Of a DNA stretch of 64,000 nucleotides, positions 15,127 through 63,737 are shown in pieces. Positions within the stretch are counted from its first letter, which is position 1; each line of letters begins with the position of its first letter. The notes beneath the pieces were generated by a model. It was not told where the DNA came from. It saw nothing but the letters and a program-made list of their open reading frames with translations, and made no database searches. The position numbers and the translations under genes were made by a program. Source of the DNA: a virus; IMG/VR virus record IMGVR_UViG_3300027749_000051, positions 61,155 to 125,154 of that record; one strand, 5' to 3'.

Positions 15127-16294
15127 AAAAACAAAAATTTGTTTGAATGCGATGGTTGGTAATGAAGCGCCGACCATCATGAGAATGCTGGAGTCTGTGG
15201 CTTCATATATTGACTATTGGGTGATCCAATGTAATGGTAAGGAAGACAATACCAAAGAAATAATTGAGAACTTTTTCCAAGAAAAAGGAATTCCTGGTTT
15301 TACATATGTAATTGATTGGAATTTTCCAGGTTGGAATAGAGATCATACATTACAAACTTGTTTGAGTGCAGATCATGGATGTGATTGGATATTGAGAATG
15401 GATGCCGATGAAACTTTGGCAGTTGATAATGATTTTGATTGGAGTATCTTGGATGATATTTCAGTTGACAGTTATAATATCACCGCTCAGGCTGGTCAAA
15501 CTAAATATTTTAGAACATGGTTTTGGAATGCAAAAAGACCGTGGTTCTTTCAACACGATAAACGACATGAAACAATTCATTTACCAGAAATTGGTGAGGA
15601 TTTCCAAAGATTCGACATGCCATACGGGTTTAGACATATGGTCTCACAGGATGGTCAGACATGGTATGTTCCAAGAAAATTCTTGAGAGATGCATTAGAG
15701 TTGGAGATTGATAAAGTTGTTGGAAATAAAGTGTTAGAGGATCATTATCATCTTTGGTATTTGGCGAAAAGTTATTCTGATTCATATGGTAATCCTGATG
15801 AGTTACCATTTGGTAAAGATCATTCTGACGAATATGCAAGAAGATCTATTTGGTATTATGAGATGTTTCTAAAGAAATCTCATAAGTGGGATGGTAGTGG
15901 TGTTCCAGAACGACAAGATGAAATGGCATACTATGCTTTGATTATGATGGGTATTGCTCATGGATTTATAGGTAATTTAGATAAGTCTTATAAATGTTTC
16001 AGAGACGCCGAGTTATTCTGTTCAGGACGAAACGAACATTTACTTTATCTTGCTTTGGAATTAGAAAAACAAAAAAAATATATTGATATTCTTCCAATTA
16101 TTGAGGAGATGTGTAATCCTGAAAAAGTTAATCCATTTCCAAATAGAACATTCTTAATCGAAGATAGAGCTTATATGAATACAAGTAATTTCTTGAATGA
16201 ATATAAAGAAAAAATTGAAAATGGGTGTAAAGAAAAAACTGAGATAACATCAAAACCATTTATTTTTAAGAGCGTTAAGTTTGACTTTAAATGA
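15119..16294 (+). CDS. Glycosyltransferase family 2 with TPR-like C-terminus
   Basis: ICLNAMVGNE...RMDADE (DxD)...HETI; helical Tyr/Ala-rich tail. Confidence 0.85.
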   Translation: MSKKTKICLNAMVGNEAPTIMRMLESVASYIDYWVIQCNGKEDNTKEIIENFFQEKGIPGFTYVIDWNFPGWNRDHTLQTCLSADHGCDWILRMDADETLAVDNDFDWSILDDISVDSYNITAQAGQTKYFRTWFWNAKRPWFFQHDKRHETIHLPEIGEDFQRFDMPYGFRHMVSQDGQTWYVPRKFLRDALELEIDKVVGNKVLEDHYHLWYLAKSYSDSYGNPDELPFGKDHSDEYARRSIWYYEMFLKKSHKWDGSGVPERQDEMAYYALIMMGIAHGFIGNLDKSYKCFRDAELFCSGRNEHLLYLALELEKQKKYIDILPIIEEMCNPEKVNPFPNRTFLIEDRAYMNTSNFLNEYKEKIENGCKEKTEITSKPFIFKSVKFDFK

Positions 16295-17397
16295 TTTTAA
16301 TGAATAAAAATATATATGATTATCTTATCGTTGGCGCTGGAGTTTTTGGTTCGGTTTGTGCCTATGAACTTACCAAAAAAGGGAAAAAATGTTTAGTAAT
16401 TGATAAACGAAAAGTTATAGGGGGAAATTGTTATACTGAAAATATAAATGGTATTCATGTTCACAAATATGGTGCACATATATTTCATACAAACGATAAA
16501 CATTTATGGGATTATGTTAATCAATTTGCAACATTTAAACCTTTTATTAATAGTCCGATTGCGAACTACAAGGGAGAGATTTATGCTCTCCCTTTTAATA
16601 TGTGGACATTTAATAAATTATGGGGTGTTACTACACCTGAGGACGCAAAACAAAAAATAGATAGTCAAAAATACAATGGAGAGGTGACTAATCTTGAAGA
16701 GCAAGCCTTATCAATGGTTGGAAAAGATGTGTATGAGAAACTAATCAAAGGGTATACTGAAAAACAATGGAATAAATCTGCAACAGAACTCCCGCCATCT
16801 ATTATTAAAAGATTGCCAGTTCGATTCACTTGGGACAATAATTATTTCAATGACAAGTATCAGGGAATACCTATTGACGGATATACACAGATATTTGAAA
16901 AGATGCTTGAGAATGTTGATGTAACACTTGGTATTGATTATTTTGAGGATAAAGAATATTTGGATTCTCTTGCTGATAAAGTAATCTATACTGGACCAAT
17001 AGATAAGTTTTTTGATTATAAGTTTGGAAGACTTGAATATAAAAGTTTAAGATGGGAAACACAAGTTTTAGAAACAGATAATTTCCAAGGTAATCCTGTT
17101 GTTAATTATACTGATTCTGAAGTACCATATACCCGAATATTAGAACATAAATGGTTTGACCATCAGAACCAAAAGGGAACTGTTATTAGTTATGAATACC
17201 CAATGGAATATACTAAAGAAACTGAACCGTATTATCCTATAAGGGATGAAAATAATATTGAAATATATGAAAAATATTATTCAGAGGCAAAGAATCTTGA
17301 TAAGTATATTTTTGGAGGAAGATTAGGAACTTATGTTTATTACGATATGCATCAAGTTATTGATCAAGCACTCAATACGATAAAAGATATTAATTGA
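16291..17397 (+). CDS. glf: UDP-galactopyranose mutase
   Basis: YDYLIVGAGVFG, GGNCY, HKYGAHIFHT, YTRILEHKWF, GRLGTYVYYDMHQVI. Confidence 0.97.
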   Translation: MILMNKNIYDYLIVGAGVFGSVCAYELTKKGKKCLVIDKRKVIGGNCYTENINGIHVHKYGAHIFHTNDKHLWDYVNQFATFKPFINSPIANYKGEIYALPFNMWTFNKLWGVTTPEDAKQKIDSQKYNGEVTNLEEQALSMVGKDVYEKLIKGYTEKQWNKSATELPPSIIKRLPVRFTWDNNYFNDKYQGIPIDGYTQIFEKMLENVDVTLGIDYFEDKEYLDSLADKVIYTGPIDKFFDYKFGRLEYKSLRWETQVLETDNFQGNPVVNYTDSEVPYTRILEHKWFDHQNQKGTVISYEYPMEYTKETEPYYPIRDENNIEIYEKYYSEAKNLDKYIFGGRLGTYVYYDMHQVIDQALNTIKDIN

Positions 17398-17914: not shown

Positions 17915-19282
17915 ATGAAAAAACTACAATTATTATTTCTTGCATTGTTTTTTGGTATTGTGTTTAATTTAAGTGCACAAGAACAAACAACAAGTGAAAA
18001 GTTAACCGAACTAAATGACAGGGTTAATGGACTATCTGAAAGGATTGCAACTAACGAATCTGACTTATCTAAATTAACTAAGATTAAGGTTTCAGGTTAC
18101 ATTCAATCTCAGTATCAAAACTTTGAAACTCCCTCCTTACTTTCTAAATCTCAAAACTATTTTTCACTTAGAAGAGTTAGAGTAAAATTTACTTATGAAG
18201 CGCTTGATGGTGTAAAATTTGTTTTACAACCTGATTTTGCTCCGGGTGGTCTTTCCTTAAAAGACGCTTATGTGGTAGTAAATGACCATTGGACTAAATC
18301 GTTTAGTTTATGGGGTGGAAAGTTCAACAGACCAAATTATGAAGTTGAATATTCGTCAAGTCAGAGAGAATTACCTGAGCGTTCATTAGTTATTAGAACA
18401 TTATATCCTGGTGAGCGTGCGATAGGTACAAAATTAGAATTTAATCCTACAACTATACCACTTCATGTTCAGTTTGCCGTTCTAAATGGTAGTGATGGTT
18501 TAACTATTGCAAACAATGCTGGTGTTAATCTTAATGCTACTGACAATATTGACTATGATAATTTCAAAGATATTATGGCTCGTATAACATACAACCTTAG
18601 TCTTGGAAGTTTTGGTGGATTAGATTTCGGTGGACATGGATATTTTGGATCGTTAAAATCAAATTCTACTAGAACATTAAATGGTGACTATTCAACACTA
18701 ACTAATACTAAAATTGGAAATTCAATTGGTAGAAATTGGTTAGGTGGAGAATTTCAATTATTTGCTGATGTGTTAGGTGGTTTATCGGTTAAAGGAGAAT
18801 ATATCGCTGGTAAAAATGCGACTATCGGATATGCTGCGGTTCCTGCCGCAGGTAGTGTTGCAGCAATCCCTGAGGTATCAAATTTCCAAAATAACTTCAA
18901 TGGTGGATATCTTTATTTCATTAAAAACTTAGGTAAGAGAAATCAGATTGCATTTAGATATGATTACTATGACCCTAATACAAATATATCAGGAAAAGAT
19001 GTTACAATAATAGGATTTACAAGTACTGATGCAACCTTGAAATCAAAGTTAAGTGGTAAGGGAGATCTTGCAACAACTACATATGGATTTGCGTTACATC
19101 ATTATTATGATGATAATATTAGAATCACAATTGGGTATGATATTGTTCAAAATGAAAAAGTTGGAACTGTTGGGAAAGTTGTTGATAACTATACCACATC
19201 TACAGGAGCACCAATTAAAGCTGATTGGAGTAATATTATTAACCAGAATGTATTAACAATAAGAATTCAAGCTAAATTTTAA
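17915..19282 (+). CDS. Outer-membrane porin, probably phosphate-selective (OprO/OprP-like)
   Basis: Signal peptide, N-terminal coiled coil, FSLRRVRVKF, LKDAYV, RYDYYDPN, terminal Phe; directly upstream of pstS. Confidence 0.8.
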   Translation: MKKLQLLFLALFFGIVFNLSAQEQTTSEKLTELNDRVNGLSERIATNESDLSKLTKIKVSGYIQSQYQNFETPSLLSKSQNYFSLRRVRVKFTYEALDGVKFVLQPDFAPGGLSLKDAYVVVNDHWTKSFSLWGGKFNRPNYEVEYSSSQRELPERSLVIRTLYPGERAIGTKLEFNPTTIPLHVQFAVLNGSDGLTIANNAGVNLNATDNIDYDNFKDIMARITYNLSLGSFGGLDFGGHGYFGSLKSNSTRTLNGDYSTLTNTKIGNSIGRNWLGGEFQLFADVLGGLSVKGEYIAGKNATIGYAAVPAAGSVAAIPEVSNFQNNFNGGYLYFIKNLGKRNQIAFRYDYYDPNTNISGKDVTIIGFTSTDATLKSKLSGKGDLATTTYGFALHHYYDDNIRITIGYDIVQNEKVGTVGKVVDNYTTSTGAPIKADWSNIINQNVLTIRIQAKF

Positions 19283-20978: not shown

Positions 20979-21962
20979 CTACTTCCAGTTAAAATTGTTT
21001 CCCATATGTCCCCACATTGCAGTTTCAGAGTATATTGGGTTTTTTAGGTCCAAATGTTTGATGATACCCTGTGGTGATAAATCGTATTTGTTTAATCCTA
21101 GTGGTAGTGTTGCGATGTTAAACTCAATACCATCAATTATTGATGTGGATTGTAAAGGTTGGTCATATCCGATTGCGTATGATAATTGGACAAATACTTC
21201 TTTTGCTGATGGATATGCTTTTAATAGATCTACAGCTACTTTACGAGCCATATATGCTGCACTTCTATCTACTTTTGTTGCGTCCTTACCACTAAATGCT
21301 CCTCCGCCAATCGGGATCCTTGGTCCATAGTTATCCACGGCAAGTTTTCTACCAGTAACACCAGCATCGGCGTCAAATCCGCCCATATTCCAATCACCAG
21401 CAGGATTACAATGTAGTGCCTCGATTCTATAACCTTCAGTTGAACAGAAATCTTTACATAAAGTTTCTAATTCTTCTTTTGGTGCGTTTTGGAAAGAACA
21501 CACTACTCTAACACTACGATTTTCTTGGTCTAATGTGATTTGTGTTTTACCATCGTAAGGGTATTGTTCGTATACCACTTTATTCAACTTTCTTGCCAGA
21601 TAATATTCTTGTGGTACTAACTCTTCATTCTCATTACATGCATAACCAATCATAATTCCTTGGTCACCAGCACCACCAACATCAACACCTTGAGCGATCT
21701 CAGGTGATTGTTTTACTAAGTTAATGATAACATCATCAACATTGGCGATTTCTTTAACGATCTCTCTAATTTTTTCATCTGAAATTTTGTATTCAGATGT
21801 TACTTCACCTGTGATGAATACTTTGGAGTGACCTCCACAGGTTTCAACGGCACATCTTGATTGTGGGTCGTTTTTTAAATGGTCATCCAAGATTGCGTCT
21901 GAGATTCTATCACAAAGCTTATCAGGATGTTTCGGGGATACAAATTCTGCTGTTCTAATCAT
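20979..21962 (-). CDS. metK: S-adenosylmethionine synthetase
   Basis: EFVSPKHPDKLCDRISDAILD, GAGDQG, DGKTQ, DAGVTGRKL, GGGAFSGKDATKVDRSAAY. Confidence 0.97.
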   Translation of the reverse strand: MIRTAEFVSPKHPDKLCDRISDAILDDHLKNDPQSRCAVETCGGHSKVFITGEVTSEYKISDEKIREIVKEIANVDDVIINLVKQSPEIAQGVDVGGAGDQGIMIGYACNENEELVPQEYYLARKLNKVVYEQYPYDGKTQITLDQENRSVRVVCSFQNAPKEELETLCKDFCSTEGYRIEALHCNPAGDWNMGGFDADAGVTGRKLAVDNYGPRIPIGGGAFSGKDATKVDRSAAYMARKVAVDLLKAYPSAKEVFVQLSYAIGYDQPLQSTSIIDGIEFNIATLPLGLNKYDLSPQGIIKHLDLKNPIYSETAMWGHMGNNFNWK

Positions 21963-22004
21963 ATCAATTTTATTTTATTTTATGTTCTATTTTTAAGTAT
22001 AATA

Positions 22005-22034
22005 AAAAAGGATGTCAAACTCAAGTTGACATCC
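22005..22034 (-). terminator. Intrinsic terminator after ahcY
   Basis: GGATGTCAA-loop-TTGACATCC followed by T run on minus strand. Confidence 0.75.
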
Positions 22035-22058
22035 TCTTAATATTTGTGTTAATTGTTA

Positions 22059-23468
22059 TTAATATCGATATTCGTCTTTTTTGTAAGGACCATTAACATC
22101 GACTCCAAGATATTCTGACTGATCTGGTGTTAAGGTTGTTAACTTGATTCCTAATTGACCAATATGTAATCTTGCCACTTCTTCATCCAAATGTTTTGGT
22201 AATGTGTGAACACCTACAGGGTAATCATTTGTCGCCAATTCAATTTGAGCTAAGACTTGGTTGGTGAATGAGGTACTCATTACAAAAGATGGGTGACCTG
22301 TTGCACACCCTAAGTTAACTAATCTACCTTCAGCCAATAGATAGATTGAGTGTCCATCTTCGAAAGTATATTTATCAACCTGTGGTTTGATATTTGTTCT
22401 GATAACAGTTTTATCAGAATGTAATTTTTCTACTTGGATCTCATTATCGAAATGTCCGATATTACAAACAATTGCCTCATCCTTCATTTGTGACATGTGT
22501 TCCAATGTAATAACATCTTTATTACCTGTTGTGGTTACATAGATATTACCAACAGATAATGAATCTTCAATTGTCTGTACTTGGAACCCTTCCATTGATG
22601 CTTGTAATGCGCAGATGGGGTCAATCTCAGTTATGATAACTCGTGCTCCATAACTCTTCATAGACTTCGCACATCCTTTGCCAACATCACCATATCCTGC
22701 AATTACAACAACTTTACCAGCGATCATAACATCTGTTGCTCGTTTGATTCCATCAGCAAGTGATTCACGACAACCATATAAGTTATCGAATTTGGATTTG
22801 GTTACAGAGTCATTAACATTAAATGCTGGGAACAATAGTTTATCGTTTTCATACATTTGATATAATCTATGTACACCTGTTGTTGTTTCTTCAGATACTC
22901 CAATAATTCCTTCAACCGCATTTTCCCATCGTTCATTGTTAGATGATAGAATTTCTTTTAGAATATGGTTAAACTCATATTCGTCTTCACCATTGGTTGG
23001 AAGATCTAAGATGTTTGGATCTTTTTCAGCATCATACCCACGATGGATCATTAATGTTGCGTCGCCACCATCATCAACAATTAAGTTTGGCCCTTCACCA
23101 TTAGGAAATTCCAATGCTTTAGCGGTACACCACCAATATTCTTCTAATGTTTCACCTTTCCATGCAAAAACAGGAATACCTGCTTCAGCAATGGCTGCGG
23201 CAGCATGATCTTGTGTTGAGAAAATATTACAACTACACCATCTAACATCTGCTCCAAGTTCTTTTAATGTTTCAATTAACACTGCAGTTTGGATTGTCAT
23301 ATGTAATGACCCAGTAATTTTGTGTCCTGATAAAGGTTTAGTTTTACCATATTTCTCACGAAGAGACATAAGTCCTGGCATTTCTTTTTCTGCAATCTTA
23401 ATTTCTTTTCTTCCGTATTCTGCAAGATTAATATCTGCTACGGCATAGTCTGTAAATTCCATATTCAT
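22059..23468 (-). CDS. ahcY: S-adenosylhomocysteine hydrolase
   Basis: [68 protein letters not shown]. Confidence 0.98.
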
Positions 23469-23793: not shown

Positions 23794-24168
23794 TTATTGA
23801 TATTGTTCGTAACTCTTTTCTTCAGTTAAGTTAGACCCTGTCAATTCATTTATTTGTCGTTTGACTTCAGATCGTTTATCGTTAATGAAATAAACTGATC
23901 TTGCGGTTTGAATGAAATCGTCACCAAAATCTTTTGATCTTTCTAGATCTCTGATATGGTCTTCAATGTCCCATAGTTGATTGTTTATCTTATACAATTC
24001 TTGGTAAAGAGGGTGAGTCTTCTCAATGATTGTGGCTACTGCAGAGTCCAATATTAAAAACTCTTTTTGTAGGTTTGTTAGTTTATCTACATTTGAGATA
24101 CGACTAATTTTAATTTCTATAATAGATAGTTTATCTACTATTTCTCCGTTTGATACTTCAATATTCAT
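23794..24168 (-). CDS. DUF6165-like phage protein
   Basis: IEVSNGEIVDKLSIIEIK...LWDIEDHIR...ARSVYFINDKRS...IN...EEKSY. Confidence 0.8.
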   Translation of the reverse strand: MNIEVSNGEIVDKLSIIEIKISRISNVDKLTNLQKEFLILDSAVATIIEKTHPLYQELYKINNQLWDIEDHIRDLERSKDFGDDFIQTARSVYFINDKRSEVKRQINELTGSNLTEEKSYEQYQ

Positions 24169-24172
24169 TTTA

Positions 24173-24703
24173 CTATGTTTTAGATTTATGATTTAATATT
24201 TCTTCAACCTTATAATCTTCCCAACTGCCAGCATCTATAGTTTTTTCTACCTTATGATTAAGGACATCTTCTATATCAGTTTCAGGAAAATTAAATACAA
24301 CCACAGGTTTTTCTATTTTATAATCGAGGACATTATCTATGTTACGGTTATCTCTGCCTTGGAAAGATAAAGTTTTTTCTACCTTATGATTGAGGACATC
24401 TTCTACTTCCGATTCATCTATAATATTTCTATGTCGAGGTGTATCTACTTTATAATTAAGGATATCTTCTACAAAAGAGGATAGGATAGGTTCAAACTCA
24501 TTTCGTTCCATTGAAAATATGGTAAAAAAATCAGAGAAAAACCACCATCTCCAATACAAGATTCCTCGTTTTTTATATTCTAAATACCAATACTTATTTT
24601 CTCTGTCAATAATCCATATGGAGTCTTCATATGGAATTATCTCAGTATGTTTCAGATCATTATATAGTTTATCAAATATTATTTTCTTTAATCTGGGGTT
24701 CAT
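24173..24703 (-). CDS. Array-fused family protein, copy A (W/F-rich domain + 5 in-frame repeats)
   Basis: WIIDRENKYWY...LYWRWWFFSDFF domain followed by 22-aa-periodic VEDxLNxKV. Confidence 0.85.
   Translation of the reverse strand: MNPRLKKIIFDKLYNDLKHTEIIPYEDSIWIIDRENKYWYLEYKKRGILYWRWWFFSDFFTIFSMERNEFEPILSSFVEDILNYKVDTPRHRNIIDESEVEDVLNHKVEKTLSFQGRDNRNIDNVLDYKIEKPVVVFNFPETDIEDVLNHKVEKTIDAGSWEDYKVEEILNHKSKT
24174..24473 (-). CRISPR. CRISPR-like mini-array A inside CDS (5 degenerate 36-nt repeats, 4 spacers of 30 nt)
   Basis: Repeats at 24438-24473, 24372-24407, 24306-24341, 24240-24275, 24174-24209; exact 66-nt period. Confidence 0.55.
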
Positions 24704-24704
24704 T

Positions 24705-25254
24705 TTAATTAAGTATATTATCTACTTTAACAGGCCATGGGCAATAATCTGCTTTTGCTGTATTTACCTTATGATTCAGTACATCGTCCAATATTTTGTA
24801 GTTCTCAACCAATGATTTCATAGATGTTTCTCCATTATGGTTAAGTACATCTGCCGTCGGGTTTACGAATCCGCAATAACCGATCTTAGTTGCATCTACC
24901 TTATGATTAAGGATGTCTTCCTCTTTAGTGTAACCTGTTGTGTTTCGCCAAGTAGATATTGTTACTTTAGGGTTAAGGATGTCTTTCACCACTGGTGTTT
25001 GCGAATCGTTTGTAAAAAAGGATTTACTTACCTTATGATTAAGGATGTTTTCCACCTTAAGATGAGTAAGAAAATCTATACCATTAGATGTACTTACCTT
25101 ATGATTAAGGATGACTTCCACCGATGCGATGGCTGGACCAACACCAGTATCGGATGTGTTTACCTTATAATTAAGGATGTCTTCCACCAATGCAGAGAAA
25201 GCATTTGAAAGAAGAACAGATGTGCCTACCTTATGATTAAGGATGTCTTCCACC
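24705..25254 (-). CRISPR. CRISPR-like mini-array B inside CDS (8 repeats + partial, 8 spacers of 30 nt)
   Basis: Repeats start (+ strand) at 25219, 25153, 25087, 25021, 24955, 24889, 24823, 24757; first is GGTGGAAGACATCCTTAATCATAAGGTAGGCACATC in gene sense; degeneracy rises distally. Confidence 0.7.
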
Positions 25255-25484
25255 ATAGAAGTTAGAAATGGTTTATACTCATTTTGTTCCAATGAGAATA
25301 GTTGGAAAAAATTATTGAAAAACTCCCATCTCCACCATAATGTTCCTGATTTTTCAAATTCAAAATACCAGTACTTTTCTTTTCTATCAATAAACCATAT
25401 CGCATTATTATATGGGATTATCTCCACATGTTTCAGATCGTTATATAGTTTATCTAATATAATTTTTTTTAATCTCTCGTTCAT
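24705..25484 (-). CDS. Array-fused family protein, copy B (8 full + 1 partial repeats)
   Basis: Same N-terminal domain; 22-aa periodic tail to the stop codon. Confidence 0.85.
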   Translation of the reverse strand: MNERLKKIILDKLYNDLKHVEIIPYNNAIWFIDRKEKYWYFEFEKSGTLWWRWEFFNNFFQLFSLEQNEYKPFLTSMVEDILNHKVGTSVLLSNAFSALVEDILNYKVNTSDTGVGPAIASVEVILNHKVSTSNGIDFLTHLKVENILNHKVSKSFFTNDSQTPVVKDILNPKVTISTWRNTTGYTKEEDILNHKVDATKIGYCGFVNPTADVLNHNGETSMKSLVENYKILDDVLNHKVNTAKADYCPWPVKVDNILN

Positions 25485-25487
25485 AGT

Positions 25488-25955
25488 TTATATTTTATTT
25501 ACCTTACGATTTAAGATTCTTTCTACCAATCCTTCAGGTGGAACTTCATCAAAGAATGTTGTTTTTACCTTACGATTTAAGATGTCTTCCACCCAGCCTT
25601 TGGCTTTACCTATGAAATTATTTGATGTATCTACCTTACGATTTAAGATGTCTTCCACCGGGTCGATCGATTGATATTCCCCATTGAAAGATGTATCTAC
25701 CTTACGATTTAAGATGTCTTCCACCATATCTCGTATAAGTGGCTCATACTCATCTCGTTCCAATGAAAACAGGTAGAAAAAATTATTGAAAAACTCCCAT
25801 CTCCACCACAGAGTTCCATTTTTATTCAATTTAAAGTACCAGTATTTTTCATTTGGATCTATTGCCCATATATTGCCATCATCGACAATAATTTCGGAGC
25901 CCTTCATATCGTTCAAAAGTTTATCAAATATTATTTTCTTTATCCTGTCGTTCAT
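25488..25955 (-). CDS. Array-fused family protein, copy C (4 repeats)
   Basis: WAIDPNEKYWYF...GTLWWRWEFFNNFF; VEDILNRKV x3 plus VERILNRKV. Confidence 0.85.
   Translation of the reverse strand: MNDRIKKIIFDKLLNDMKGSEIIVDDGNIWAIDPNEKYWYFKLNKNGTLWWRWEFFNNFFYLFSLERDEYEPLIRDMVEDILNRKVDTSFNGEYQSIDPVEDILNRKVDTSNNFIGKAKGWVEDILNRKVKTTFFDEVPPEGLVERILNRKVNKI
25492..25725 (-). CRISPR. CRISPR-like mini-array C inside CDS (4 repeats, 3 spacers of 30 nt)
   Basis: GGTGGAAGACATCTTAAATCGTAAGGTAGATACATC identical at 25690-25725 and 25624-25659; variants at 25558-25593 and 25492-25527. Confidence 0.75.
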
Positions 25956-25974
25956 ATCATCTAAATTATCTTGG

Positions 25975-26005
25975 CAAAGATATTAAAAAAGATTAATACA
26001 ACAAA
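25975..26005 (-). promoter_or_regulatory. Bacteroidota sigmaA-type promoter driving the C-B-A operon
   Basis: Minus strand TTTG (26002-26005), 19-nt spacer, TATCTTTG (25975-25982). Confidence 0.7.
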
Positions 26006-26043
26006 ATATTTTCAAGGATATTGTGTGATTGAATTAATTTTAT

Positions 26044-26051
26044 TATCTTTG
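26044..26051 (+). promoter_or_regulatory. Divergent TAnnTTTG -7 element
   Basis: TATCTTTG upstream of the 26092-28114 gene run. Confidence 0.6.
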
Positions 26052-26091
26052 TGGAATAGAAAGTAAGTTATTAAATTAAAAGTTAAATAAT

Positions 26092-26253
26092 ATGTGGGTT
26101 AAGAAGAAGATTTTGGATCATTGGACTTATATTGAAAGAAAGACCAAAGTATTTGTTAGACGGGATTATCGTAATAACACCGTTGTGATTAATTTTATGG
26201 AAGGTGGTCCTTGTACTTTATATACTTATAAAGGTGAATGGATTGCGGGTTAA
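26092..26253 (+). CDS. 53-aa hypothetical protein
   Basis: Manual: MWVKKKILDHWTYIERKTKVFVRRDYRNNTVVINFMEGGPCTLYTYKGEWIAG. Confidence 0.55.
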   Translation: MWVKKKILDHWTYIERKTKVFVRRDYRNNTVVINFMEGGPCTLYTYKGEWIAG

Positions 26254-26274
26254 AAAAGAATTGGAGGAAAAGAA

Positions 26275-26826
26275 ATGAGCGGAGGACACTTTGATTACAA
26301 ACAAAACGAAATCGGTTATATTGCCGATGAGATAGAAAGCACCATTGAAAGAAATGGTAAGGAAAAGACCCAAGAGGAATTAAGAGATGAAGGATGGTGT
26401 AATTCTGAATTTCATAATCAATATCCTGAAGATAAATTTCACTATAAATATCCGGATGATGTTATTGAGAAATTTAAAGAGGCTGTTAATTTATTAAGAA
26501 AAGCACAAATCTATGCTCACAGAATTGATAGGTTATTATCAGGAGATGATGGAGAAGAATCATTTATTAAACGATTAAATGATGAATTGGATAAAATTGA
26601 GATTCCACTACCAAATGACGCGTTAATAGAGGCGGCACAACGATATAAGGAAAATGTTAGTGCAGGAGCGCTTACATCATCTAGTAATGGTTTAACATTG
26701 TCACCATCAACTATTAGTGGAATATGGAGTAGTAGCACTACTACTTGGAAAGGTGGTTATGTCACAAATAACTTTGAATCTTATTATATGGGTGAGAATG
26801 GTAATAAACATATAAATAATAAATGA
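26275..26826 (+). CDS. Hypothetical phage protein (MSGGHFDY N-terminus)
   Basis: 183-aa ORF; YAHRIDRLLSGDDGEESF motif. Confidence 0.75.
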   Translation: MSGGHFDYKQNEIGYIADEIESTIERNGKEKTQEELRDEGWCNSEFHNQYPEDKFHYKYPDDVIEKFKEAVNLLRKAQIYAHRIDRLLSGDDGEESFIKRLNDELDKIEIPLPNDALIEAAQRYKENVSAGALTSSSNGLTLSPSTISGIWSSSTTTWKGGYVTNNFESYYMGENGNKHINNK

Positions 26827-27281
26827 AAACTCAGAAAGAATATCCTGAGACACACTTCAGGAGCAGTGAGGCGGAAAGAATTCACAATGAGGGTTATGAA
26901 CTGATGCTCATTAATAATACTTTACCTTTTAACAACAGACCAGTTCTCGGAGATGCAAAACACGGATTTGTTAGTATGAGTTGGGATGCTTGGCATAAGA
27001 ATAGGGATAGTATGAGACTTAAACGACTTACCAATCCTCAACTCCTCAACGGAGAAATTAAGAATGATAGAATCGTTTCATTATATAAAGGATGTAAGGT
27101 TCATCTAATGAATAAGGGTGGGACATACATTGTTAAATCATATGATAATGAGGTGGCTGTGATCACTTGTCAGAGATGGGTTAACCAGAAAGAATGGGGA
27201 CAAAGATACAGAGATACCTTAACAGTTCCAAGAAGTGAAATAAAATGTCATTATGGGGGAACAAAATACGGCAAGTTGTAA
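26823..27281 (+). CDS. Hypothetical protein
   Basis: 152-aa ORF, ATGA overlap. Confidence 0.7.
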   Translation: MKTQKEYPETHFRSSEAERIHNEGYELMLINNTLPFNNRPVLGDAKHGFVSMSWDAWHKNRDSMRLKRLTNPQLLNGEIKNDRIVSLYKGCKVHLMNKGGTYIVKSYDNEVAVITCQRWVNQKEWGQRYRDTLTVPRSEIKCHYGGTKYGKL

Positions 27282-27325
27282 TATTTTTATTATATTTGTA
27301 TAATTAATCATTAAATCTTTTAGAT

Positions 27326-27577
27326 ATGACCGAATCGGACAGTGCTATTTTAGAAACACTTATTACAAAGTTATTAGAAGGAGTTGAATTAGAATCAAAA
27401 ACAGAAACCGCGATTGGATATCACGGAAGTTCACAGGGAGAAGAGATTACTTATACGATACATTATAATCCGTATCGTAGGACTTGGGAACCAAAAGAGT
27501 TTGCCTTAATGGGGCATGTGTTCTCAAAAATTAAACCAATAATCTTAAAAATTATAAATAAAGATGGGAATGTTTGA
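27326..27577 (+). CDS. Hypothetical protein
   Basis: 83-aa ORF after TATATTTG (27291). Confidence 0.65.
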   Translation: MTESDSAILETLITKLLEGVELESKTETAIGYHGSSQGEEITYTIHYNPYRRTWEPKEFALMGHVFSKIKPIILKIINKDGNV

Positions 27578-27947
27578 TACACTTTACATCAATATAGACA
27601 AATTGCCTATATCTGATAAGGAAAAAGAAACTATCGGCAATGATACCGAATGGCAGACCAAATCTTTTGATTGCGTCTTAACGGAGATATACATAACCGA
27701 TCAGAACGAATTAAAGATCAATCGATGGAATTATGAGGATGTTCCATTGGAAGACAGACCAAATCCACTTAAAGAAGGAATACTTGGATTTATGGGAAGC
27801 CTGAGAAGAGCCAATGAGAGATTGGAAATAATGTCTTATAATGGATATGTTAACTTTTATGGTAAAGGAGGAGATGATTGGTATGAGTTTAATGCCAAGT
27901 TTATTGATGGACTACTTCAAGGGATTGAGGGTGGAAAAATAGTTTAA
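27564..27947 (+). CDS. Hypothetical phage protein (MGMFDTL N-terminus)
   Basis: WQTKSFDCVL...WYEFNAKFIDG. Confidence 0.75.
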   Translation: MGMFDTLYINIDKLPISDKEKETIGNDTEWQTKSFDCVLTEIYITDQNELKINRWNYEDVPLEDRPNPLKEGILGFMGSLRRANERLEIMSYNGYVNFYGKGGDDWYEFNAKFIDGLLQGIEGGKIV

Positions 27948-27952
27948 GGTTG

Positions 27953-28114
27953 ATGAAGCATAGTTTTTGGAGGATATGGGCAAAATCATTAGGGGAGAAA
28001 ACAGGAGAGACCGATGAGGAAGCAGATAGAGTTGCGATGGTTAGAACAATAATCTTAATGGTATACATTATAACCAATTTAGTTATAATCGCAGGAATAA
28101 TTAGACACTGGTAA
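27953..28114 (+). CDS. 53-aa membrane protein of a myophage-type family
   Basis: Manual: MKHSFWRIWAKSLGEKTGETDEEADRVAMVRTIILMVYIITNLVIIAGIIRHW. Confidence 0.7.
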   Translation: MKHSFWRIWAKSLGEKTGETDEEADRVAMVRTIILMVYIITNLVIIAGIIRHW

Positions 28115-28143
28115 TTAACCCTCACCCAAAAGGTGGGGGTTAA

Positions 28144-28407
28144 TTATGAGATAACTTTAACTGGCAACTTATATCCTTTTTTGAACCAAGCGGATATAAC
28201 AATAAGGATTACATTATCAATGTAACCTTTTCCAAACTTCTTATTCAACTCGGACCTAACTATATCACTACAATACATTGTTGAGGTCTTAATATCAAAT
28301 AAGAAATACTCGTTATGCCAGGTCTGCTCAACCTTATCATAGTAAAGGTATGGGAACCCAAATTTATCATCTATGAATTTAACTATGTGTTTTTCTATTG
28401 TTGTCAT
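28144..28407 (-). CDS. Hypothetical protein
   Basis: 87-aa ORF ending at hairpin 28118-28140. Confidence 0.6.
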   Translation of the reverse strand: MTTIEKHIVKFIDDKFGFPYLYYDKVEQTWHNEYFLFDIKTSTMYCSDIVRSELNKKFGKGYIDNVILIVISAWFKKGYKLPVKVIS

Positions 28408-28434
28408 ATATACAAATATAATATATTTATTAAT

Positions 28435-28956
28435 ATGAACTTACAAGAAAACATACACAGGATTAAGGAAATGATGGGGATTAATGAAAAGCATGATCTC
28501 CTGAATAAACCTATCAAAGATATTATAGACCAAGTGGGAGGATATGGAACAGGATTCAACACCGATGAAGACGCCATAGAAGAAATAGAATATGTGGTAT
28601 CAAGTGATTTTCCTGAAGGTCTGAATAACATTCCAACTAAAGTAATCTTATATAGAGTTATATTATTGGAAGATGGTAAATCCATTAACGAGGATCAGGT
28701 TGGGGAACATTTCATTTCGGATACAAGACATATAGATAGATCGTTCTTGGAAAAGATAGATATATGGGACAATTGGGATGCGGACAATTCCAAGTTATGG
28801 TTACTACAATGTGAAACGGATGGGGATAATATAGATATAGAAAGAACATTAGGTAATAGAGTTCAATATCCTCGTGAGAATGAATTCACCCTGAAGAACG
28901 ATAAAAAGATTAGGTTGATAAAGAAAAAGATACTTAATAAAGAACAGCTTAGATGA
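28435..28956 (+). CDS. Putative ADP-ribosyltransferase-fold protein with MxLQENIxRIK leader
   Basis: LYRV...HFISD...RENEF resembles the R-S-E triad; start moved to ATG 28435 after TATTTAT. Confidence 0.45.
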   Translation: MNLQENIHRIKEMMGINEKHDLLNKPIKDIIDQVGGYGTGFNTDEDAIEEIEYVVSSDFPEGLNNIPTKVILYRVILLEDGKSINEDQVGEHFISDTRHIDRSFLEKIDIWDNWDADNSKLWLLQCETDGDNIDIERTLGNRVQYPRENEFTLKNDKKIRLIKKKILNKEQLR

Positions 28957-29483
28957 AATACATAATTACTGAGAGACAATATAGAGTGATATCCGAAGAA
29001 GTTAATCCTCGCATCAAAGAAATTATCTTCAATAAGTTATTGAATGATATGAAGGGTGTTGAGATTATTGAAGATAATGGTAGCATATGGGCAATAGATC
29101 CTGATGAGAAATACTGGTACTTTGAGTTGCAAGAAAACGGAACTTTATGGTGGAGATGGGGATTTTTCAATAATTTTTTCAAGTTATTTTCAATAGAAAG
29201 AAATGAGTTTGAACCACTTATGCGTGAACTGGTGGAAGACATCTTGAATCGCAAGGTAGTCACATCACTTCTAGTGCAATTCCTTGGTGACCTAATGGTG
29301 GAAGACATCTTGAATCGCAAGGTAGTCACATCCCACAGCGGACAGATTCACGTCCAAAGCCAGGTGGAAGACATCTTGAATCGCAAGGTAGTCACATCTA
29401 GTGGGCATGACCAAAGATTAACAATGTCAATAAAAGACATATTAAATCGTAGGAATAAGATAACCAAAGATGAGAACTTTTAA
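28953..29483 (+). CDS. Array-fused family protein, copy D (MKYIITE leader)
   Basis: Leader + W/F-rich domain + VEDILNRKVVTS x3. Confidence 0.9.
   Translation: MKYIITERQYRVISEEVNPRIKEIIFNKLLNDMKGVEIIEDNGSIWAIDPDEKYWYFELQENGTLWWRWGFFNNFFKLFSIERNEFEPLMRELVEDILNRKVVTSLLVQFLGDLMVEDILNRKVVTSHSGQIHVQSQVEDILNRKVVTSSGHDQRLTMSIKDILNRRNKITKDENF
29231..29464 (+). CRISPR. CRISPR-like mini-array D inside CDS (3 identical 36-nt repeats + degenerate terminal repeat, 3 spacers of 30 nt)
   Basis: GGTGGAAGACATCTTGAATCGCAAGGTAGTCACATC at 29231, 29297, 29363; degenerate copy at 29429. Confidence 0.8.
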
Positions 29484-29486
29484 GAT

Positions 29487-29804
29487 ATGAAACTACAAGA
29501 GAACATAGACAGAATTAAACAAGTGATGGGAGTTATCAATGAAGATAAACCATCAATCCATATTTTACGGAGATTACCTCAAATAGAGAGGGCATTAAAT
29601 CAGACATTATATTATTTATCTCCTTGTGAATATGATGATGTGGAATATTATACTGAACATGTATTACACCAACTTAGGGAATATTTTGAAGATTATGAAG
29701 AAGAAGAAGAGGTTGAACCTTTTGCGGCAACAAATTATGTTGCAGAATATTTATCATCTGAAATAGAAGAATATTACGATGACCGTAAAACAGAATGTGA
29801 ATAA
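29487..29804 (+). CDS. Acidic hypothetical protein with MKLQENIDRIKQVMG leader
   Basis: Leader identical to 29869 and 30581. Confidence 0.75.
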   Translation: MKLQENIDRIKQVMGVINEDKPSIHILRRLPQIERALNQTLYYLSPCEYDDVEYYTEHVLHQLREYFEDYEEEEEVEPFAATNYVAEYLSSEIEEYYDDRKTECE

Positions 29805-29868
29805 TAAAGAATATTCACTTAGACATAAACTATACAATATCAAATAAATCTATACAATATTTTTTATA

Positions 29869-30558
29869 ATGAAACTACAAGAGAATATAGATAGGATAAA
29901 ACAAGTGATGGGGATTATTACAGAATCACGACCAGGATTTTGTTTACCGAAAGATTATACTCCAGGAACAAAATATGGAAGGGATGAGTTAGCTAAGATG
30001 TTTGTATGTTTTACAAAAGATCCGAAGAAGTTTCCATTATTGGCGGTTAAGGAATGGTTATTTCCACAATTACCTGGTGGAGGATTTACGCCCCAAGATC
30101 CAATGAGTATGAGTTATGGTCAACCATATACTTTTACTATGGAAAGAATGGCAAAAGTAGAAGATAAAAATACAAGAAATATCACAGTCGGAATAAAAAC
30201 CATTGACCCAACTCAATTACCTGATGAAACAAAAAGATGGTTTAGTATAAAACAAAAATCTCCAGGATTTCAAGATAGATTTGACTATCAGATAAATAAG
30301 ATAAGGGAGAATGACTATGATACTACAGTTATAACACCTCAAGATGAGCCTATGGTTTTTGAGGTTATAAATAGAAAGTTATATATTCAAGAAGGGTGGC
30401 ATAGGTTAATGGCGATCTTAATGTTATTGGAGAAGGGGGAAATAATTCCTGATCAGGCTAAAGTATATGCTGTAACTGTATTTAGATCTCCCGATTTTAA
30501 GTTAAAAATAGTGGATAAACCAGAAGGCCTTTTTGAAAACATAAGAAATTACCAATAA
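29869..30558 (+). CDS. ParB/sulfiredoxin-like domain protein with leader
   Basis: EPMVFEV...LYIQEGWHRLMA resembles the ParB-N DGHHR motif. Confidence 0.55.
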   Translation: MKLQENIDRIKQVMGIITESRPGFCLPKDYTPGTKYGRDELAKMFVCFTKDPKKFPLLAVKEWLFPQLPGGGFTPQDPMSMSYGQPYTFTMERMAKVEDKNTRNITVGIKTIDPTQLPDETKRWFSIKQKSPGFQDRFDYQINKIRENDYDTTVITPQDEPMVFEVINRKLYIQEGWHRLMAILMLLEKGEIIPDQAKVYAVTVFRSPDFKLKIVDKPEGLFENIRNYQ

Positions 30559-30580
30559 TAACCAAGATAGATTTATAACA

Positions 30581-31060
30581 ATGAAACTACAAGAGAATAT
30601 AGATAGGATAAAACAAGTGATGGGGATTAATGAAACCTTTGACGCAGGGGTGGAACCAACTCTTAGAGACACCTATAACGAAGATGGGGCAAAAGTATAT
30701 TCATACATCCTTCCGTCAAAGAAAGATGAAAAAGATTACATCATCAACTTAAAGTTCTATAAGGAGTTTAAGGACCCGAAAATCAAAGATACATATAAAG
30801 ATGTTATGGTAATAGATTTTAATCTTGGGGCAGGGACTTATTACAATACCAACCTTAATGAAGTATTTTATATCTTTGCTTCAATCAATAAACTTATAGA
30901 GAAGTATAAGAAGAAGTTCCAATATCTTATGGGTTATTCAAACAAAGATAGATTGTCCTTATATAAGAAAGCATTGTCAAGAGCAAATTATTTGGAACTG
31001 GTAGATGAGGGATCACATCATATCATATATAAGAACAAAGATTATTCACGATGGTTCTAA
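30581..31060 (+). CDS. Hypothetical protein with leader
   Basis: MKLQENIDRIKQVMGINE leader. Confidence 0.75.
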   Translation: MKLQENIDRIKQVMGINETFDAGVEPTLRDTYNEDGAKVYSYILPSKKDEKDYIINLKFYKEFKDPKIKDTYKDVMVIDFNLGAGTYYNTNLNEVFYIFASINKLIEKYKKKFQYLMGYSNKDRLSLYKKALSRANYLELVDEGSHHIIYKNKDYSRWF

Positions 31061-31070
31061 ACCATACAAG

Positions 31071-31097
31071 ACCTCACCTAATAAGTGGGGTTTTTTT
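31071..31097 (+). terminator. Intrinsic terminator of the repeated ACCYCA...GTGGGGTTTT family
   Basis: AAGACCTCACCTAATAAGTGGGG (23 nt) is identical at 31068 and 34612. Confidence 0.85.
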
Positions 31098-31196
31098 ATT
31101 AAAAATAATTACGCAATTTTCCTAGCTAGGAGTTGACTGGTAAAAAATAATTTCATATCATTGTAATATAATTAAACATTAAAAATATTAGAAGAT

Positions 31197-31604: not shown

Positions 31605-31676
31605 TAGTTCTTTACCTCACCATAACGGTGGGGTTTTTTTATTGATTAAAATTGATTAATTTTTATATTATGAAAT

Positions 31677-32627
31677 ATGAAAGATTTAATTTTTATCAGT
31701 GCTTATTGTCCAACCGAGGAACAAGAAAGGGCTCTTGAAAGGTGTGTTAATCATGTATTAGAATGTGGGAAACACATTGTCTTAGTTTCTCACACACATG
31801 TGCCAATCCATATTCAAAAAAAATGCCAATACTACGTTTATGATTATAACAATGAAATTTCAGACGATTATAATTTGTTAGGACATCATCATTTTAAGTT
31901 TGGAAATAACAGAATACAATCAAGATTCTTCAACAAATATTTTTATGGTTTCGCCATATATAGAATGTTCGCAATAGCATGTCAAATTGCGATAAATTTT
32001 GGATATCAAAATATTCATCACATTGAATATGATGGTCAGTTGTTAGATAAAAATTTAATTGATGAAAATAGTAAACACCTTGAAGAATATGATTCTGTAA
32101 TATACACAGATAACGGTAAAGAAGATGGGTTTCTTTTTGGTTCTTTCAAATCTTTGAAAGTAAGTTCATTACCTGAGAATTTGAAAAACTATAACAAAGA
32201 GTTTATTGATACTGAAATGAGAATAATTGAGCCAAAACAATTAGAGGTTTTTACAAAAAATCTATTCCTAAATTCAGGAAAAGTATTGTTTAAGAATGAA
32301 CTAACGGATGATAGATTTAAAAGGGGAGATAGAGTTTTTCATCGGAACTTACACTTTACTCTGTATTACAATGCATCAGATAGAACCTTAAACATTTTTT
32401 ATAACTCTGTTAAAGACTCATCGGAAAAAATTATTGTTATAGTCAATAAAACAACAATGGTTAATATACAAACCAAACCTTATCATTGGCATACAAAACC
32501 GTTGGGTATTTTTGACGAGATTAATCATGTAAGAGTGGACAATTCAGAAAAAATTATTTATGATAAAACCTTTGATAGCCAATTTAGAGAGGTATTCAAA
32601 ATAAAGTCATACATCGTTAGTGAATAA
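31677..32627 (+). CDS. Hypothetical protein, possibly glycosyltransferase-like
   Basis: First gene of a three-gene overlapping operon; HHIEYD DxD-like motif. Confidence 0.6.
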   Translation: MKDLIFISAYCPTEEQERALERCVNHVLECGKHIVLVSHTHVPIHIQKKCQYYVYDYNNEISDDYNLLGHHHFKFGNNRIQSRFFNKYFYGFAIYRMFAIACQIAINFGYQNIHHIEYDGQLLDKNLIDENSKHLEEYDSVIYTDNGKEDGFLFGSFKSLKVSSLPENLKNYNKEFIDTEMRIIEPKQLEVFTKNLFLNSGKVLFKNELTDDRFKRGDRVFHRNLHFTLYYNASDRTLNIFYNSVKDSSEKIIVIVNKTTMVNIQTKPYHWHTKPLGIFDEINHVRVDNSEKIIYDKTFDSQFREVFKIKSYIVSE

Positions 32628-33444
32628 GATAATCAATTTTACTCCAACAGGAACACAAACCACAAGGGACAATTCCTTAGCTCCATTATTACCGAATGAA
32701 ATAATAGAGGAAGTTCATAGCGCGAATGAGGTGGGGATTTCAATTGTACATCTACATGCAAGAGATGAAGAGACAAATAACACTTACAAGAAAGAAGTGT
32801 ATCAAAAGATTATAGAAGGGATAAAAAAACATTGTCCTGACTTGTTGATTTGTGTTTCATTAACGGGAAGAAACTTCCCTGAGTTAGAGAAAAGAGCCGA
32901 GGTATTACAATTAAAACCTGATATGGGCTCGCTAACCATGTCATCATTAAACTTTCCATCAGGGGCATCAATTAATCAACCTGAGACCATCTTATCTTTA
33001 ATAAACGAGATGGACAAATATGGTGTACAACCTGAGATAGAATGTTTTGACGCAGGAATGTTAAACTATACAAATTACATTATTTCAAAGAACATATTAA
33101 AGCCACCATATCACATCAATGTTATATTAGGAAACATATACAATGGGCAATGTGATTTTGGGACCTTATCATCAATTAAATCTAATCTACCAGCAAATTC
33201 ATATACTTGTTTGGGTGGTATAGGCTCTCAACAACTAAAGAGTACCACATATGGATTATTAGATTTCGATGGTATTAGAATCGGGATAGAGGATAATCTA
33301 TATTACAAAGATAAGGAAAAAACAACAAACATAGATCTATTAAAAAGGGCACATAGGATAATGAATGAATTAGATATGACACATTATACATCAAACGAAT
33401 TGAGACAAAAAGGATATGGAAACAAACTTATTAATATTAGGTAA
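32620..33444 (+). CDS. kce: 3-keto-5-aminohexanoate cleavage enzyme family (BKACE/DUF849)
   Basis: PTG...PLLPNEIIEE, IVHLHARD, PDMGSLTMSSLNF, PEIECFD, RIGIEDN. Confidence 0.88.
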   Translation: MNKIINFTPTGTQTTRDNSLAPLLPNEIIEEVHSANEVGISIVHLHARDEETNNTYKKEVYQKIIEGIKKHCPDLLICVSLTGRNFPELEKRAEVLQLKPDMGSLTMSSLNFPSGASINQPETILSLINEMDKYGVQPEIECFDAGMLNYTNYIISKNILKPPYHINVILGNIYNGQCDFGTLSSIKSNLPANSYTCLGGIGSQQLKSTTYGLLDFDGIRIGIEDNLYYKDKEKTTNIDLLKRAHRIMNELDMTHYTSNELRQKGYGNKLINIR

Positions 33445-40761: not shown

Positions 40762-41142
40762 ATGAAATACATAATTACCGAAAATCAATATAGACTGATT
40801 AATGAAGAGGTTAGCCCTCGCCTGAAAGATTTTATTTTTAATAAGTTATTGGAAGATATGAAGGGAGCCGAACTTATTGAAGATAAATTTAGCACCATAT
40901 GGGCAATTGATCCTGACGAGAAGTACTGGTACTTTGTATTGCTAAAAGATGGTACTTTATGGTGGAGACCGGACTTTTTCCATAATTTCTTTAGGTTGTT
41001 TTCATTGGGACAAAAAGAATTTGAGCCACTTATACGAGATATGGTGGGAGACATCTTAAATCGCAAGGTAGGTAAATCAGGCGCTTTTGAATCCTTGCAT
41101 CCTCTTCAGGTGGGAGACATCTTAAATCGCAATAAGAAATGA
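40762..41142 (+). CDS. Array-fused family protein, copy E (leader, 2 repeats)
   Basis: MKYIITENQY leader, W/F-rich domain, VGDILNRK x2. Confidence 0.88.
   Translation: MKYIITENQYRLINEEVSPRLKDFIFNKLLEDMKGAELIEDKFSTIWAIDPDEKYWYFVLLKDGTLWWRPDFFHNFFRLFSLGQKEFEPLIRDMVGDILNRKVGKSGAFESLHPLQVGDILNRNKK
41043..41132 (+). CRISPR. CRISPR-like repeat-spacer-partial repeat E inside CDS
   Basis: GGTGGGAGACATCTTAAATCGCAAGGTAGGTAAATC (41043-41078), 30-nt spacer, 24-nt identical truncated repeat (41109-41132). Confidence 0.6.
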
Positions 41143-63387: not shown

Positions 63388-63460
63388 GGTTGGGTAGCTC
63401 AGAGAGTAGAGCAATGTCTTAAAGAAACATGTGCCAGGGGTGCAATTCCTCTCCCAACCA
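63388..63460 (+). tRNA. Atypical tRNA-Phe-like gene with AAA anticodon
   Basis: GGTTGGG/CCCAACC+A; GCTC-AGAGAGTA-GAGC; ATGTC-TTAAAGA-AACAT (C.A mismatch); variable loop GTGCC; AGGGG-TGCAATT-CCTCT; 73 nt, no encoded CCA. Confidence 0.75.
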
Positions 63461-63737
63461 CGTATATGAGGTAAGGTTTTTTAATGGTGGTTGTTCGTGA
63501 TACCTACAAAATTTTTTGTCCTCTTTAAAAAAATAAAAAATCTAACATAAAATCACGGAGGATTAAAGAGAGTGGTGACTTATCTCAAACCCGCCTTAAG
63601 GGTTAAAATAACCTAACCGTTTTGACGTTATCGGTGAACTATAAAAAAAACGAAGTACGGGGACAAATACCTGTACTTATGGGAAATGGTAATGTATTCC
63701 AGTCAAACAAGTTTACTTTCGTAAATTGTTAAAGTAT

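Follow-up and report, generated by a model that had tools for sequence, protein, structure and literature searches.

How does an array with the repeat-spacer build of a non-coding immune memory locus come to lie inside a translated gene of a phage, and where do its inserts come from? We address these questions for array D, an array of the CRISPR (short palindromic repeats, clustered and regularly interspaced) type in gene D of IMG/VR virus record IMGVR_UViG_3300027749_000051. The stretch analysed, hereafter the window, comprises 64,000 nucleotides (nt) at positions 61,155 to 125,154 of that record; its source contig is a 125-kb piece of the genome of an uncultured lake jumbo phage (CheckV completeness 42%, GC content ~32%). 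Our results suggest, with a probability that we put at roughly 0.6, that array D is a CRISPR-type array lying in frame in a phage gene, into which host DNA is inserted by Cas1-Cas2 of the host acting in trans. The features of gene D are given below; L004 (Ga0007801_10038915) is a related locus, and P0004 and P0008 are relatives compared at the protein level.

28953-29483, plus strand: gene D; an N-terminal domain of ~92 residues, then the in-frame array and a short tail; homologs of the same build exist
28953-29230, plus strand: coding part of the N-terminal domain, with its 3' end where a CRISPR array would have its leader, adjoining the growing end of the array
29231-29266, plus strand: repeat 1 (36 nt), the leader-proximal end
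29267-29296, plus strand: spacer D1 (30 nt), newest by position; no source found
29297-29332, plus strand: repeat 2, identical to repeat 1
29333-29362, plus strand: spacer D2, an exact 30-nt copy from the chromosome of an uncultured Bacteroidia bacterium (3' part of a DEAD-box helicase gene)
29363-29398, plus strand: repeat 3, identical to repeats 1 and 2
29399-29428, plus strand: spacer D3, the oldest; common to L004 (one substitution) and, at the protein level, to P0004 and P0008
29429-29464, plus strand: degenerate terminal repeat (20/36), identical in L004
29465-29483, plus strand: C-terminal tail and stop codon; L004 has 87 nt (29 codons) more here

The 36-nt repeat occurs without a single mismatch at 29231-29266, 29297-29332 and 29363-29398 (36/36 each time, vs. 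no match in 100 shuffles); spacers D1, D2 and D3 are 30 nt each and bear no likeness to one another; and the fourth unit, at 29429-29464, agrees with the array D repeat at 20 of 36 positions. All three points had been made in an earlier reading of the letters without database searches (the sequence-only reading), and all three stand. Near-identical direct repeats of 23-50 nt and unique spacers of uniform length are the generic marks of a CRISPR array, and array D has both. It is not, however, a free-standing non-coding locus, but part of a translated gene: the array lies wholly in frame within the open reading frame (ORF) 28953-29483 (176 amino acids), of which it makes up the 3' third; the sequence upstream, in the place of a leader, is coding and belongs to the same ORF, with no AT-rich non-coding leader; and no cas gene lies nearby. 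Each 66-nt unit (36+30) equals 22 codons, giving 12 constant and 10 variable residues. Synonymous sites just upstream of the first repeat, taken as a test for a leader, showed no excess conservation. Protein D matches no Pfam family, and an Rfam scan of 24000-30000 (E up to 10) placed neither CRISPR-DR nor any other family on array D. The AlphaFold2 model of protein D, with a mean pLDDT (predicted local distance difference test) score of 53.7, gave no Foldseek match in the PDB at E ≤ 0.001 and was not used.

Spacer D2 leads directly to a bacterial chromosome. A search with its 22-nt core against one genome per prokaryote species (596 Gb) matched two independent metagenome-assembled genomes (MAGs) of uncultured Bacteroidia, each from its own lake: L084 (YR2_bin-1173) and L085 (LacPavin MAG_40_8). 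In both MAGs the match comprises exactly the 30 nt of the spacer (30/30), with unrelated flanks and no microhomology at the junctions; chance alone would give ~1e-6 exact 30-mers in 596 Gb. The matched sequence lies in the 3' part of a 420-residue gene with Pfam DEAD and Helicase_C domains that adjoins gyrB. D2 has the same sense as this helicase gene but is read in a different frame in the phage, and is therefore a copy made at the DNA level rather than a case of protein homology. We conclude that D2 is a copy of chromosomal DNA of a Bacteroidia bacterium, which we presume to be the host. The protospacer search that the sequence-only reading had proposed for this array thus succeeded for D2, and its description of the insertions as template-independent proved wrong in the sense that the inserts are copies of existing host DNA.

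Gene D is one of eight paralogs in the window that share an N-terminal domain of ~90 residues, six of which (A-F) run in frame into arrays. When the two source MAGs were searched whole (as G001 and G002), spacers B1, B2 and C1 matched at 30/30, F1 at 29/30 and B3 at 27/30; the leader spacer of L004 matched G002 at 29/30; three leader spacers of another related locus, L007, matched the source MAGs at 30/30; and the spacers of a third, L005, gave one exact match, one at 29/30 and one weaker. These matches point to one Bacteroidia species in two lakes as the origin of the leader-side spacers; the older, trailer-side spacers had no match in the source MAGs. The host-derived spacers match ordinary chromosomal genes in both orientations (6 sense, 5 antisense), and spacer GC content is 0.42 vs. 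0.40 for host DNA and 0.32 for the phage. Viral and plasmid sequence was searched as well: D1-D3 have no match elsewhere in the 125-kb phage genome of the kind that self-targeting would leave; 328 family spacers compared with 421 kb of related phage loci yielded no convincing source; a BLAST search of cultured phages and plasmids with the array as query gave hits at chance level only; and the exact 22-mer cores of D1, D2 and D3 are absent from IMG/VR.

Comparison with relatives shows where the array grows. L004 and the window are ~94-96% identical on the N-terminal side (261/278 nt in the coding part of the N-terminal domain and 243/253 nt upstream of it); L004 keeps the terminal degenerate repeat and, with one substitution, the last spacer D3, and next to the N-terminal domain it carries one spacer unrelated to D1 and D2, and beyond the array it is 87 nt longer. 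The same polarity is seen at the protein level in P0004 and P0008. The ortholog of array B in L007 has five trailer-side spacers in common with the window, and all three of its leader-side spacers are different. Throughout the family, adjacent repeats are identical in 44 of 130 first pairs, 21 of 104 second pairs and 0 of 16 seventh pairs. From L004, P0004/P0008, L007 and this gradient of repeat identity, it follows that arrays grow at the N-domain end throughout the family. New 66-nt units, each a copy of the 36-nt repeat with a 30-nt insert, are added at this end; and array D shows the polarised growth of a CRISPR array, with older spacers common to relatives and a degenerate last repeat. 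The claim of recent insertions is hence borne out, as the array behaves in a CRISPR-like manner with insertions at the repeat-identical end. What was looked for to disprove it, homologous spacers in relatives that differ by substitutions only, is not seen on the leader side: the L004 spacer there is unrelated, and only D3 is common.

Gene D belongs to a family of more than 100 loci, nearly all from lakes, with up to eight paralogs per 64 kb. Protein and DNA searches recovered the same build in 35 protein clusters, 95 confirmed metagenome stretches and 25 IMG/VR loci; the metagenome loci analysed are the best 80 of the 95 confirmed stretches. In the family loci, the spacing of the motif is 22 residues in 428 of 471 cases and the spacer length 30 nt in 424 of 457, and the repeat consensus of the phage family starts with GGTG and ends with ACAAC. 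The family is at the same time a protein tandem repeat, having an in-frame 22-residue period and a constant 12-residue motif in distant homologs. In the distant relative L001, whose N-terminal domain is 34% identical, a related 12-residue motif is kept; its DNA repeats are only ~80% identical and are spaced by 66, 69, 72, 81 or 84 nt, that is, in whole codons. Given this, the array region of L001 evolves as an ordinary protein repeat, and the array-derived region persists as a protein repeat in lineages with decayed DNA repeats.

Several variants of the build were seen along the way. The metagenome proteins P0002, P0003 and P0012 consist of two members fused in one ORF, in the order N-domain, array, second N-domain, second array, the stop codon after a short array of the paralog E type being read through or lost in such fused relatives. 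One spacer in P0021 and P0002 is 12 residues (36 nt) long, not 10. A few family spacers measure 27, 33 or 36 nt, length variants occurring in whole codons only.

The family also shows how the inserts are filtered. A spacing scan made at the DNA level, and thus blind to frame, gave 348 spacings of exactly 66 nt and 384 of 389 that are multiples of 3, with none of 65 or 67 nt; bacterial arrays of CRISPR type VI-B do contain 65- and 67-nt units. In the frame used, 299 of 301 unique 30-nt spacers are stop-free, vs. a fraction of 0.56 for 30-mers drawn at random from host DNA; read in the five remaining frames, the same 301 spacers have a stop-free fraction of 0.44-0.65. The inserts thus look like random DNA filtered for one open frame, which shows that translation through the arrays is under selection. 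Only inserts that keep the frame and are free of stops persist, and the array region is kept translatable. The nucleotides of the repeat are constrained as well: several synonymous choices run contrary to the AT bias of the genome (GTG 75/80, GAG 59/59, AAG 48/51, ACA 53/54), and position 1 of the repeat, a free wobble base, is G in 506 of 587 units. This shows a constraint on the nucleic acid in addition to that on the protein.

Which enzyme would add such units? Inserts of exactly 30 nt, combined with exact duplication of a 36-nt repeat at one end and with no microhomology at the junctions, are what a Cas1-Cas2 integrase and its ruler characteristically leave (PMC8092290). The type VI-B geometry is 36+30 nt, giving a CRISPR RNA (crRNA) of 66 nt (doi 10.1101/092577), and in Flavobacterium columnare VI-B arrays are filled in trans via the type II-C Cas1, many of the spacers being derived from the host genome (PMC8092290). 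Our proposed mechanism has three parts: the units would be inserted in trans by a Cas1-Cas2 integrase whose ruler measures 30 nt; this integrase would most likely be the type II-C module found in the host lineage, as for the F. columnare VI-B arrays, and the phage repeat would offer it the ends (a GGTG start and an end close to CACAAC) and the 36-nt length of VI-B repeats; and the gene product would need a tail, so that the phage may tolerate or exploit the addition of modules driven by the integrase.

The source lineage holds systems of both types, VI-B (36/30) and II-C (30-nt spacers). A search for VI-B-like arrays in 201 genomes of the MAGs' GTDB family, with a pattern taken from the ends of the phage repeat, found 36/30 arrays in five genomes and single matches in four more, vs. 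two hits for a reversed control pattern. In the genomes checked (G039 and G099) these arrays directly adjoin cas13b, and the Cas13b model finds full-length genes in both, which served as the positive control. The D repeat agrees with one VI-B repeat at 23 of 36 positions, of which the 3' end contributes 12/14, the 5' end 4/5 and the middle 7/17. Independently of the repeat-end pattern, Cas1 is present in 14 of 26 genomes of the MAGs' genus group; in one of this group, G203, the cas9-cas1-cas2 locus is complete, and its array combines a repeat of 47 nt (GGTG...CACAAC) with spacers of exactly 30 nt. A weak Cas1 hit (13 bits) in two related phages fell on an acidic coiled-coil ORF and was rejected.

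Several observations weigh against insertion by a host Cas1-Cas2. The middle of the repeat is unlike that of VI-B (7/17), and the similarity of the ends is partly imposed by the search pattern. Cas1, Cas9 and Cas13b were not detected in either source MAG, the completeness of which is not established; Cas13b was not found in the 26 genus genomes; neither Cas1 nor Cas13b was found in the 125-kb phage contig, itself 42% complete; and related IMG/VR phage records lack Cas1 (n = 12) and Cas13b (n = 10). Given that Cas1 is absent from the MAGs, the phage contig and the related phage records searched, we infer the integrase rather than see it. Moreover, the integrase of G203 has a repeat of 47 nt as its own, and the duplication of a 36-nt repeat is unexplained here, as it is in PMC8092290. 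For D1, no source was found in the 125-kb phage genome, cultured phages, plasmids or IMG/VR (22-mer core), nor in G001/G002, the 26 genus genomes or the 12 related phage records; the best outside match of D3 is 24/30, in a hemL-like gene of genus members, where ~0.1-0.2 such hits are expected by chance. No clear protospacer-adjacent motif (PAM) emerged from 11 protospacers: a T at -3 occurs in 8 of 11, which is not significant after multiple testing, and the upstream TTTA-N5 of the F. columnare type is absent at all 11. Covariation analysis of 197 unique family repeats gave no consensus structure, with a mean minimum free energy (MFE) of -3.85 vs. -3.45 kcal/mol for shuffled repeats.

What the phage would gain from in-frame insertion of host DNA is a separate matter. 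The balance tips slightly towards a gain at the protein level: each acquisition would lengthen and vary the tail with 12 constant and 10 random residues. The array may also, or instead, act as a DNA or RNA mimic that diverts host CRISPR components, which we hold to be possible yet somewhat doubtful; the two functions do not exclude each other. The broader proposal that a jumbo-phage gene family diversifies its protein by means of the host CRISPR integrase, one sequence being both CRISPR array and protein tail, is put forward tentatively, as rather unlikely.

It is also possible, but rather unlikely, that the main role of the array is played by RNA: crRNA-like pieces cut from its transcript would load the host Cas13b and would be aimed at host transcripts or, much as an RNA anti-CRISPR does, would crowd out anti-phage guides, translation being of secondary importance. 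The VI-B geometry of 36+30 nt with its 66-nt crRNA size is as such a role would have it, the repeat ends and 3' part resemble the cas13b-adjacent repeats of the host family, and precedents exist in phage-borne repeat mimics (PMC10651486) and in huge-phage arrays with host-matching spacers (PMC7162821). The D repeat, moreover, folds well in the sense strand only (MFE -9.2 kcal/mol, z = -2.45; antisense -3.4 kcal/mol), and its ends, GGUG...CAUC, are able to pair via G-U. The hairpin described in the sequence-only reading is indeed this sense-strand MFE fold, but it is specific to D's version of the repeat and is not kept in the 197 family repeats: the family consensus is GGUG...CAAC, pairs 1-36, 3-34 and 4-33 form in 73-90% of the family repeats but pair 2-35 in only 19%, and there is no poly-U loop. 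As the hairpin is not conserved across the family, it is weak evidence for a crRNA role. Three further points stand against such a role: Cas13b is absent from the source MAGs and the 26 genus genomes as searched; the spacers, 6 sense vs. 5 antisense, have no strand bias, so that complementarity to mRNA is not selected, which argues against their selection as RNA guides; and a role in RNA only does not explain the strong selection for an open frame.

Alternatively, the phage's own enzyme or some non-Cas mechanism, rather than the host Cas1-Cas2, could insert the units; we regard this as improbable. Room for it is left by the lack of detectable Cas1 in both source MAGs, by the completeness of the window's contig (just 42%) and by the neighbours of the arrays, most of which belong to no known family. 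Against it, none of the 12 related phage records has Cas1 above threshold; among them are one of 309 kb, rated 100% complete, and another, 82% complete, whose arrays look active, with identical leader-side repeats. The inserts themselves, exact 30-mers joined to duplicated 36-nt repeats, bear the ruler signature of Cas1-Cas2 (PMC8092290), and their junctions lack microhomology.

The arrays could likewise be passive scars, for which we see a low probability: the host integrase would mistake a C-terminal motif for its repeat, and in-frame, stop-free inserts would be tolerated with no benefit to the phage. A 66-nt unit equals 22 codons, so canonical insertions keep the frame automatically, and repeats that are good substrates would proliferate by drive alone, which would explain the conservation of young repeats and the decay of old ones. 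Off-target integration that creates new arrays is known in Escherichia coli. Mere tolerance, however, sits poorly with a build conserved in over 100 loci and up to eight paralogs per 64 kb, and with array-derived repeats that distant relatives retain under constraint on the protein. Were the target harmful, synonymous changes should have let it escape, but the ends that look like recognition sites are preserved.

Finally, it is very improbable that array D is an ordinary protein tandem repeat in which a 22-residue module is duplicated, its variable half diverges and recombination shuffles the units with no capture from outside: L001 with its N-domain, related motif, ~80% identical DNA repeats and codon-wise spacings fits that model, the order of units differs among P0023, P0024 and P0026, so that cassette shuffling does occur, and the repeat shows free variation at its wobble positions 13, 16 and 28, but D2 and at least 10 other leader-side spacers of the clade are exact or near-exact copies of bacterial 30-mers, on either strand and in other frames, the G at repeat position 1 and the synonymous choices contrary to AT bias go beyond a protein constraint, and the 30/30 host matches refute the model as a complete explanation.

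Insertion by a host Cas1-Cas2, which we prefer, places array D beside several known systems. It resembles the VI-B arrays of F. columnare in its 36-nt repeat and 30-nt spacers (PMC8092290; doi 10.1101/092577), and in the lack of adjoining cas1/cas2, growth at one end, a degenerate last repeat, many spacers from the host genome and somewhat similar repeat ends (PMC8092290); the family of the source bacterium has arrays of the VI-B type, and its genus group has a II-C locus whose spacers are 30 nt. It differs from VI-B arrays in lying in a phage, inside a translated ORF and behind a coding "leader"; in a repeat that starts with GGTG instead of GTTG, ends with CATC instead of CAAC, has no poly-U loop and has an unrelated middle; in having no cas13b nearby or in the source MAGs; and in that the upstream TTTA-N5 motif of F. 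columnare (PMC8092290) is absent for the protospacers of its family. Huge phages carry compact arrays without Cas1, Cas2 or Cas4, some with spacers from host chromosomes (PMC7162821). Array D shares with these the large uncultured phage, the short array, the lack of adaptation genes and the chromosomal spacers of the presumed host; the huge-phage arrays are described as non-coding and as often lying beside phage cas effectors (PMC7162821), whereas array D has no cas gene and belongs, as an in-frame 3' portion, to a gene family with several copies. Phage-borne imitations of host CRISPR repeats, as array D may be, are also known as RNA anti-CRISPRs, solitary repeat units and viral mini-arrays (PMC10651486; PMC11656645). 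The ends of the array D repeat resemble VI-B and II-C repeats of the lineage, but the sequence is coding and no CRISPR locus was found in the source MAGs.

RNA anti-CRISPRs, solitary repeat units and mini-arrays are non-coding RNAs of small size, whose fixed spacers are few if any, whereas array D goes on acquiring spacers and is probably translated. Full-text searches of the literature gave no description of a growing CRISPR-type array that is also translated as part of a gene family. Diversity-generating retroelements use a reverse transcriptase for template-directed adenine mutagenesis of a region of fixed length. If the protein-level gain is real, array D would resemble them in the targeted variation of one part of a phage protein; unlike them, it adds whole 22-codon modules made from foreign DNA.

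Besides gene D, the window contains further array-bearing paralogs as follows.

24173-25955, minus strand: three tandem paralogs (A, B and C), all with an in-frame 36/30 array at the end
40762-41142, plus strand: paralog E, with two repeat units and one spacer
44052-44915, plus strand: paralog F, with the N-domain, four repeat units and then a C-terminal region of ~114 residues

The C-terminal region of paralog F is reached only by translation through the array. This post-array region (44571-44912) is basic, contains Cys and matches no Pfam family; it is nearly unchanged in P0025, where the preceding repeats are degenerate.

Around gene D, at 28410-30629, four neighbouring genes with starts at ~28435, 29487, 29869 and 30581 have a start region of ~74 nt in common; their first ~15 residues are alike and are followed by complete divergence, and none has a Pfam family. 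They constitute a second paralog family, interleaved with gene D. Next to the tandem of A, B and C, a stretch of 65 nt at 24107-24171, at the 5' end of an ORF of the DUF6165 family (23794-24168, minus strand), is 82-85% identical to both source MAGs (G002:C38:2910-2974 and G001:C16:8721-8782); the phage and its presumed host thus have this gene in common. Auxiliary metabolic genes of the window (20979-23468, 16291-17397, 32620-33444 and 17915-19282) comprise SAM (S-adenosylmethionine) synthetase and SAH (S-adenosylhomocysteine) hydrolase side by side, UDP (uridine diphosphate)-galactopyranose mutase with two GT2 glycosyltransferases, and a beta-keto acid cleavage enzyme; a weak match to the porin O/P family is also found among the window's genes. 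ARAGORN places a tRNA-Phe with the unusual anticodon AAA at 63388-63461. A terminator-like element, consisting of a GC stem followed by a T run, occurs twice, at 31071-31120 and 31614-31663 (74% identical over 50 nt, 543 nt apart).

In practical terms, CRISPR finders that discard arrays in ORFs as false positives would miss arrays of this kind, and the spacers would allow uncultured lake jumbo phages to be assigned to hosts directly from sequence. The family would also be a natural system in which to learn how a type II integrase copes with a 36-nt repeat that is not its own, which PMC8092290 leaves open. If our reading is true, CRISPR-type spacer integration would not be confined to non-coding loci of immune memory: host DNA would be written, in frame-preserving steps of 66 nt, into the coding part of genes of a widespread phage family of genes, which would provide these phages with a new source of protein variation or with a new counter-defence decoy.

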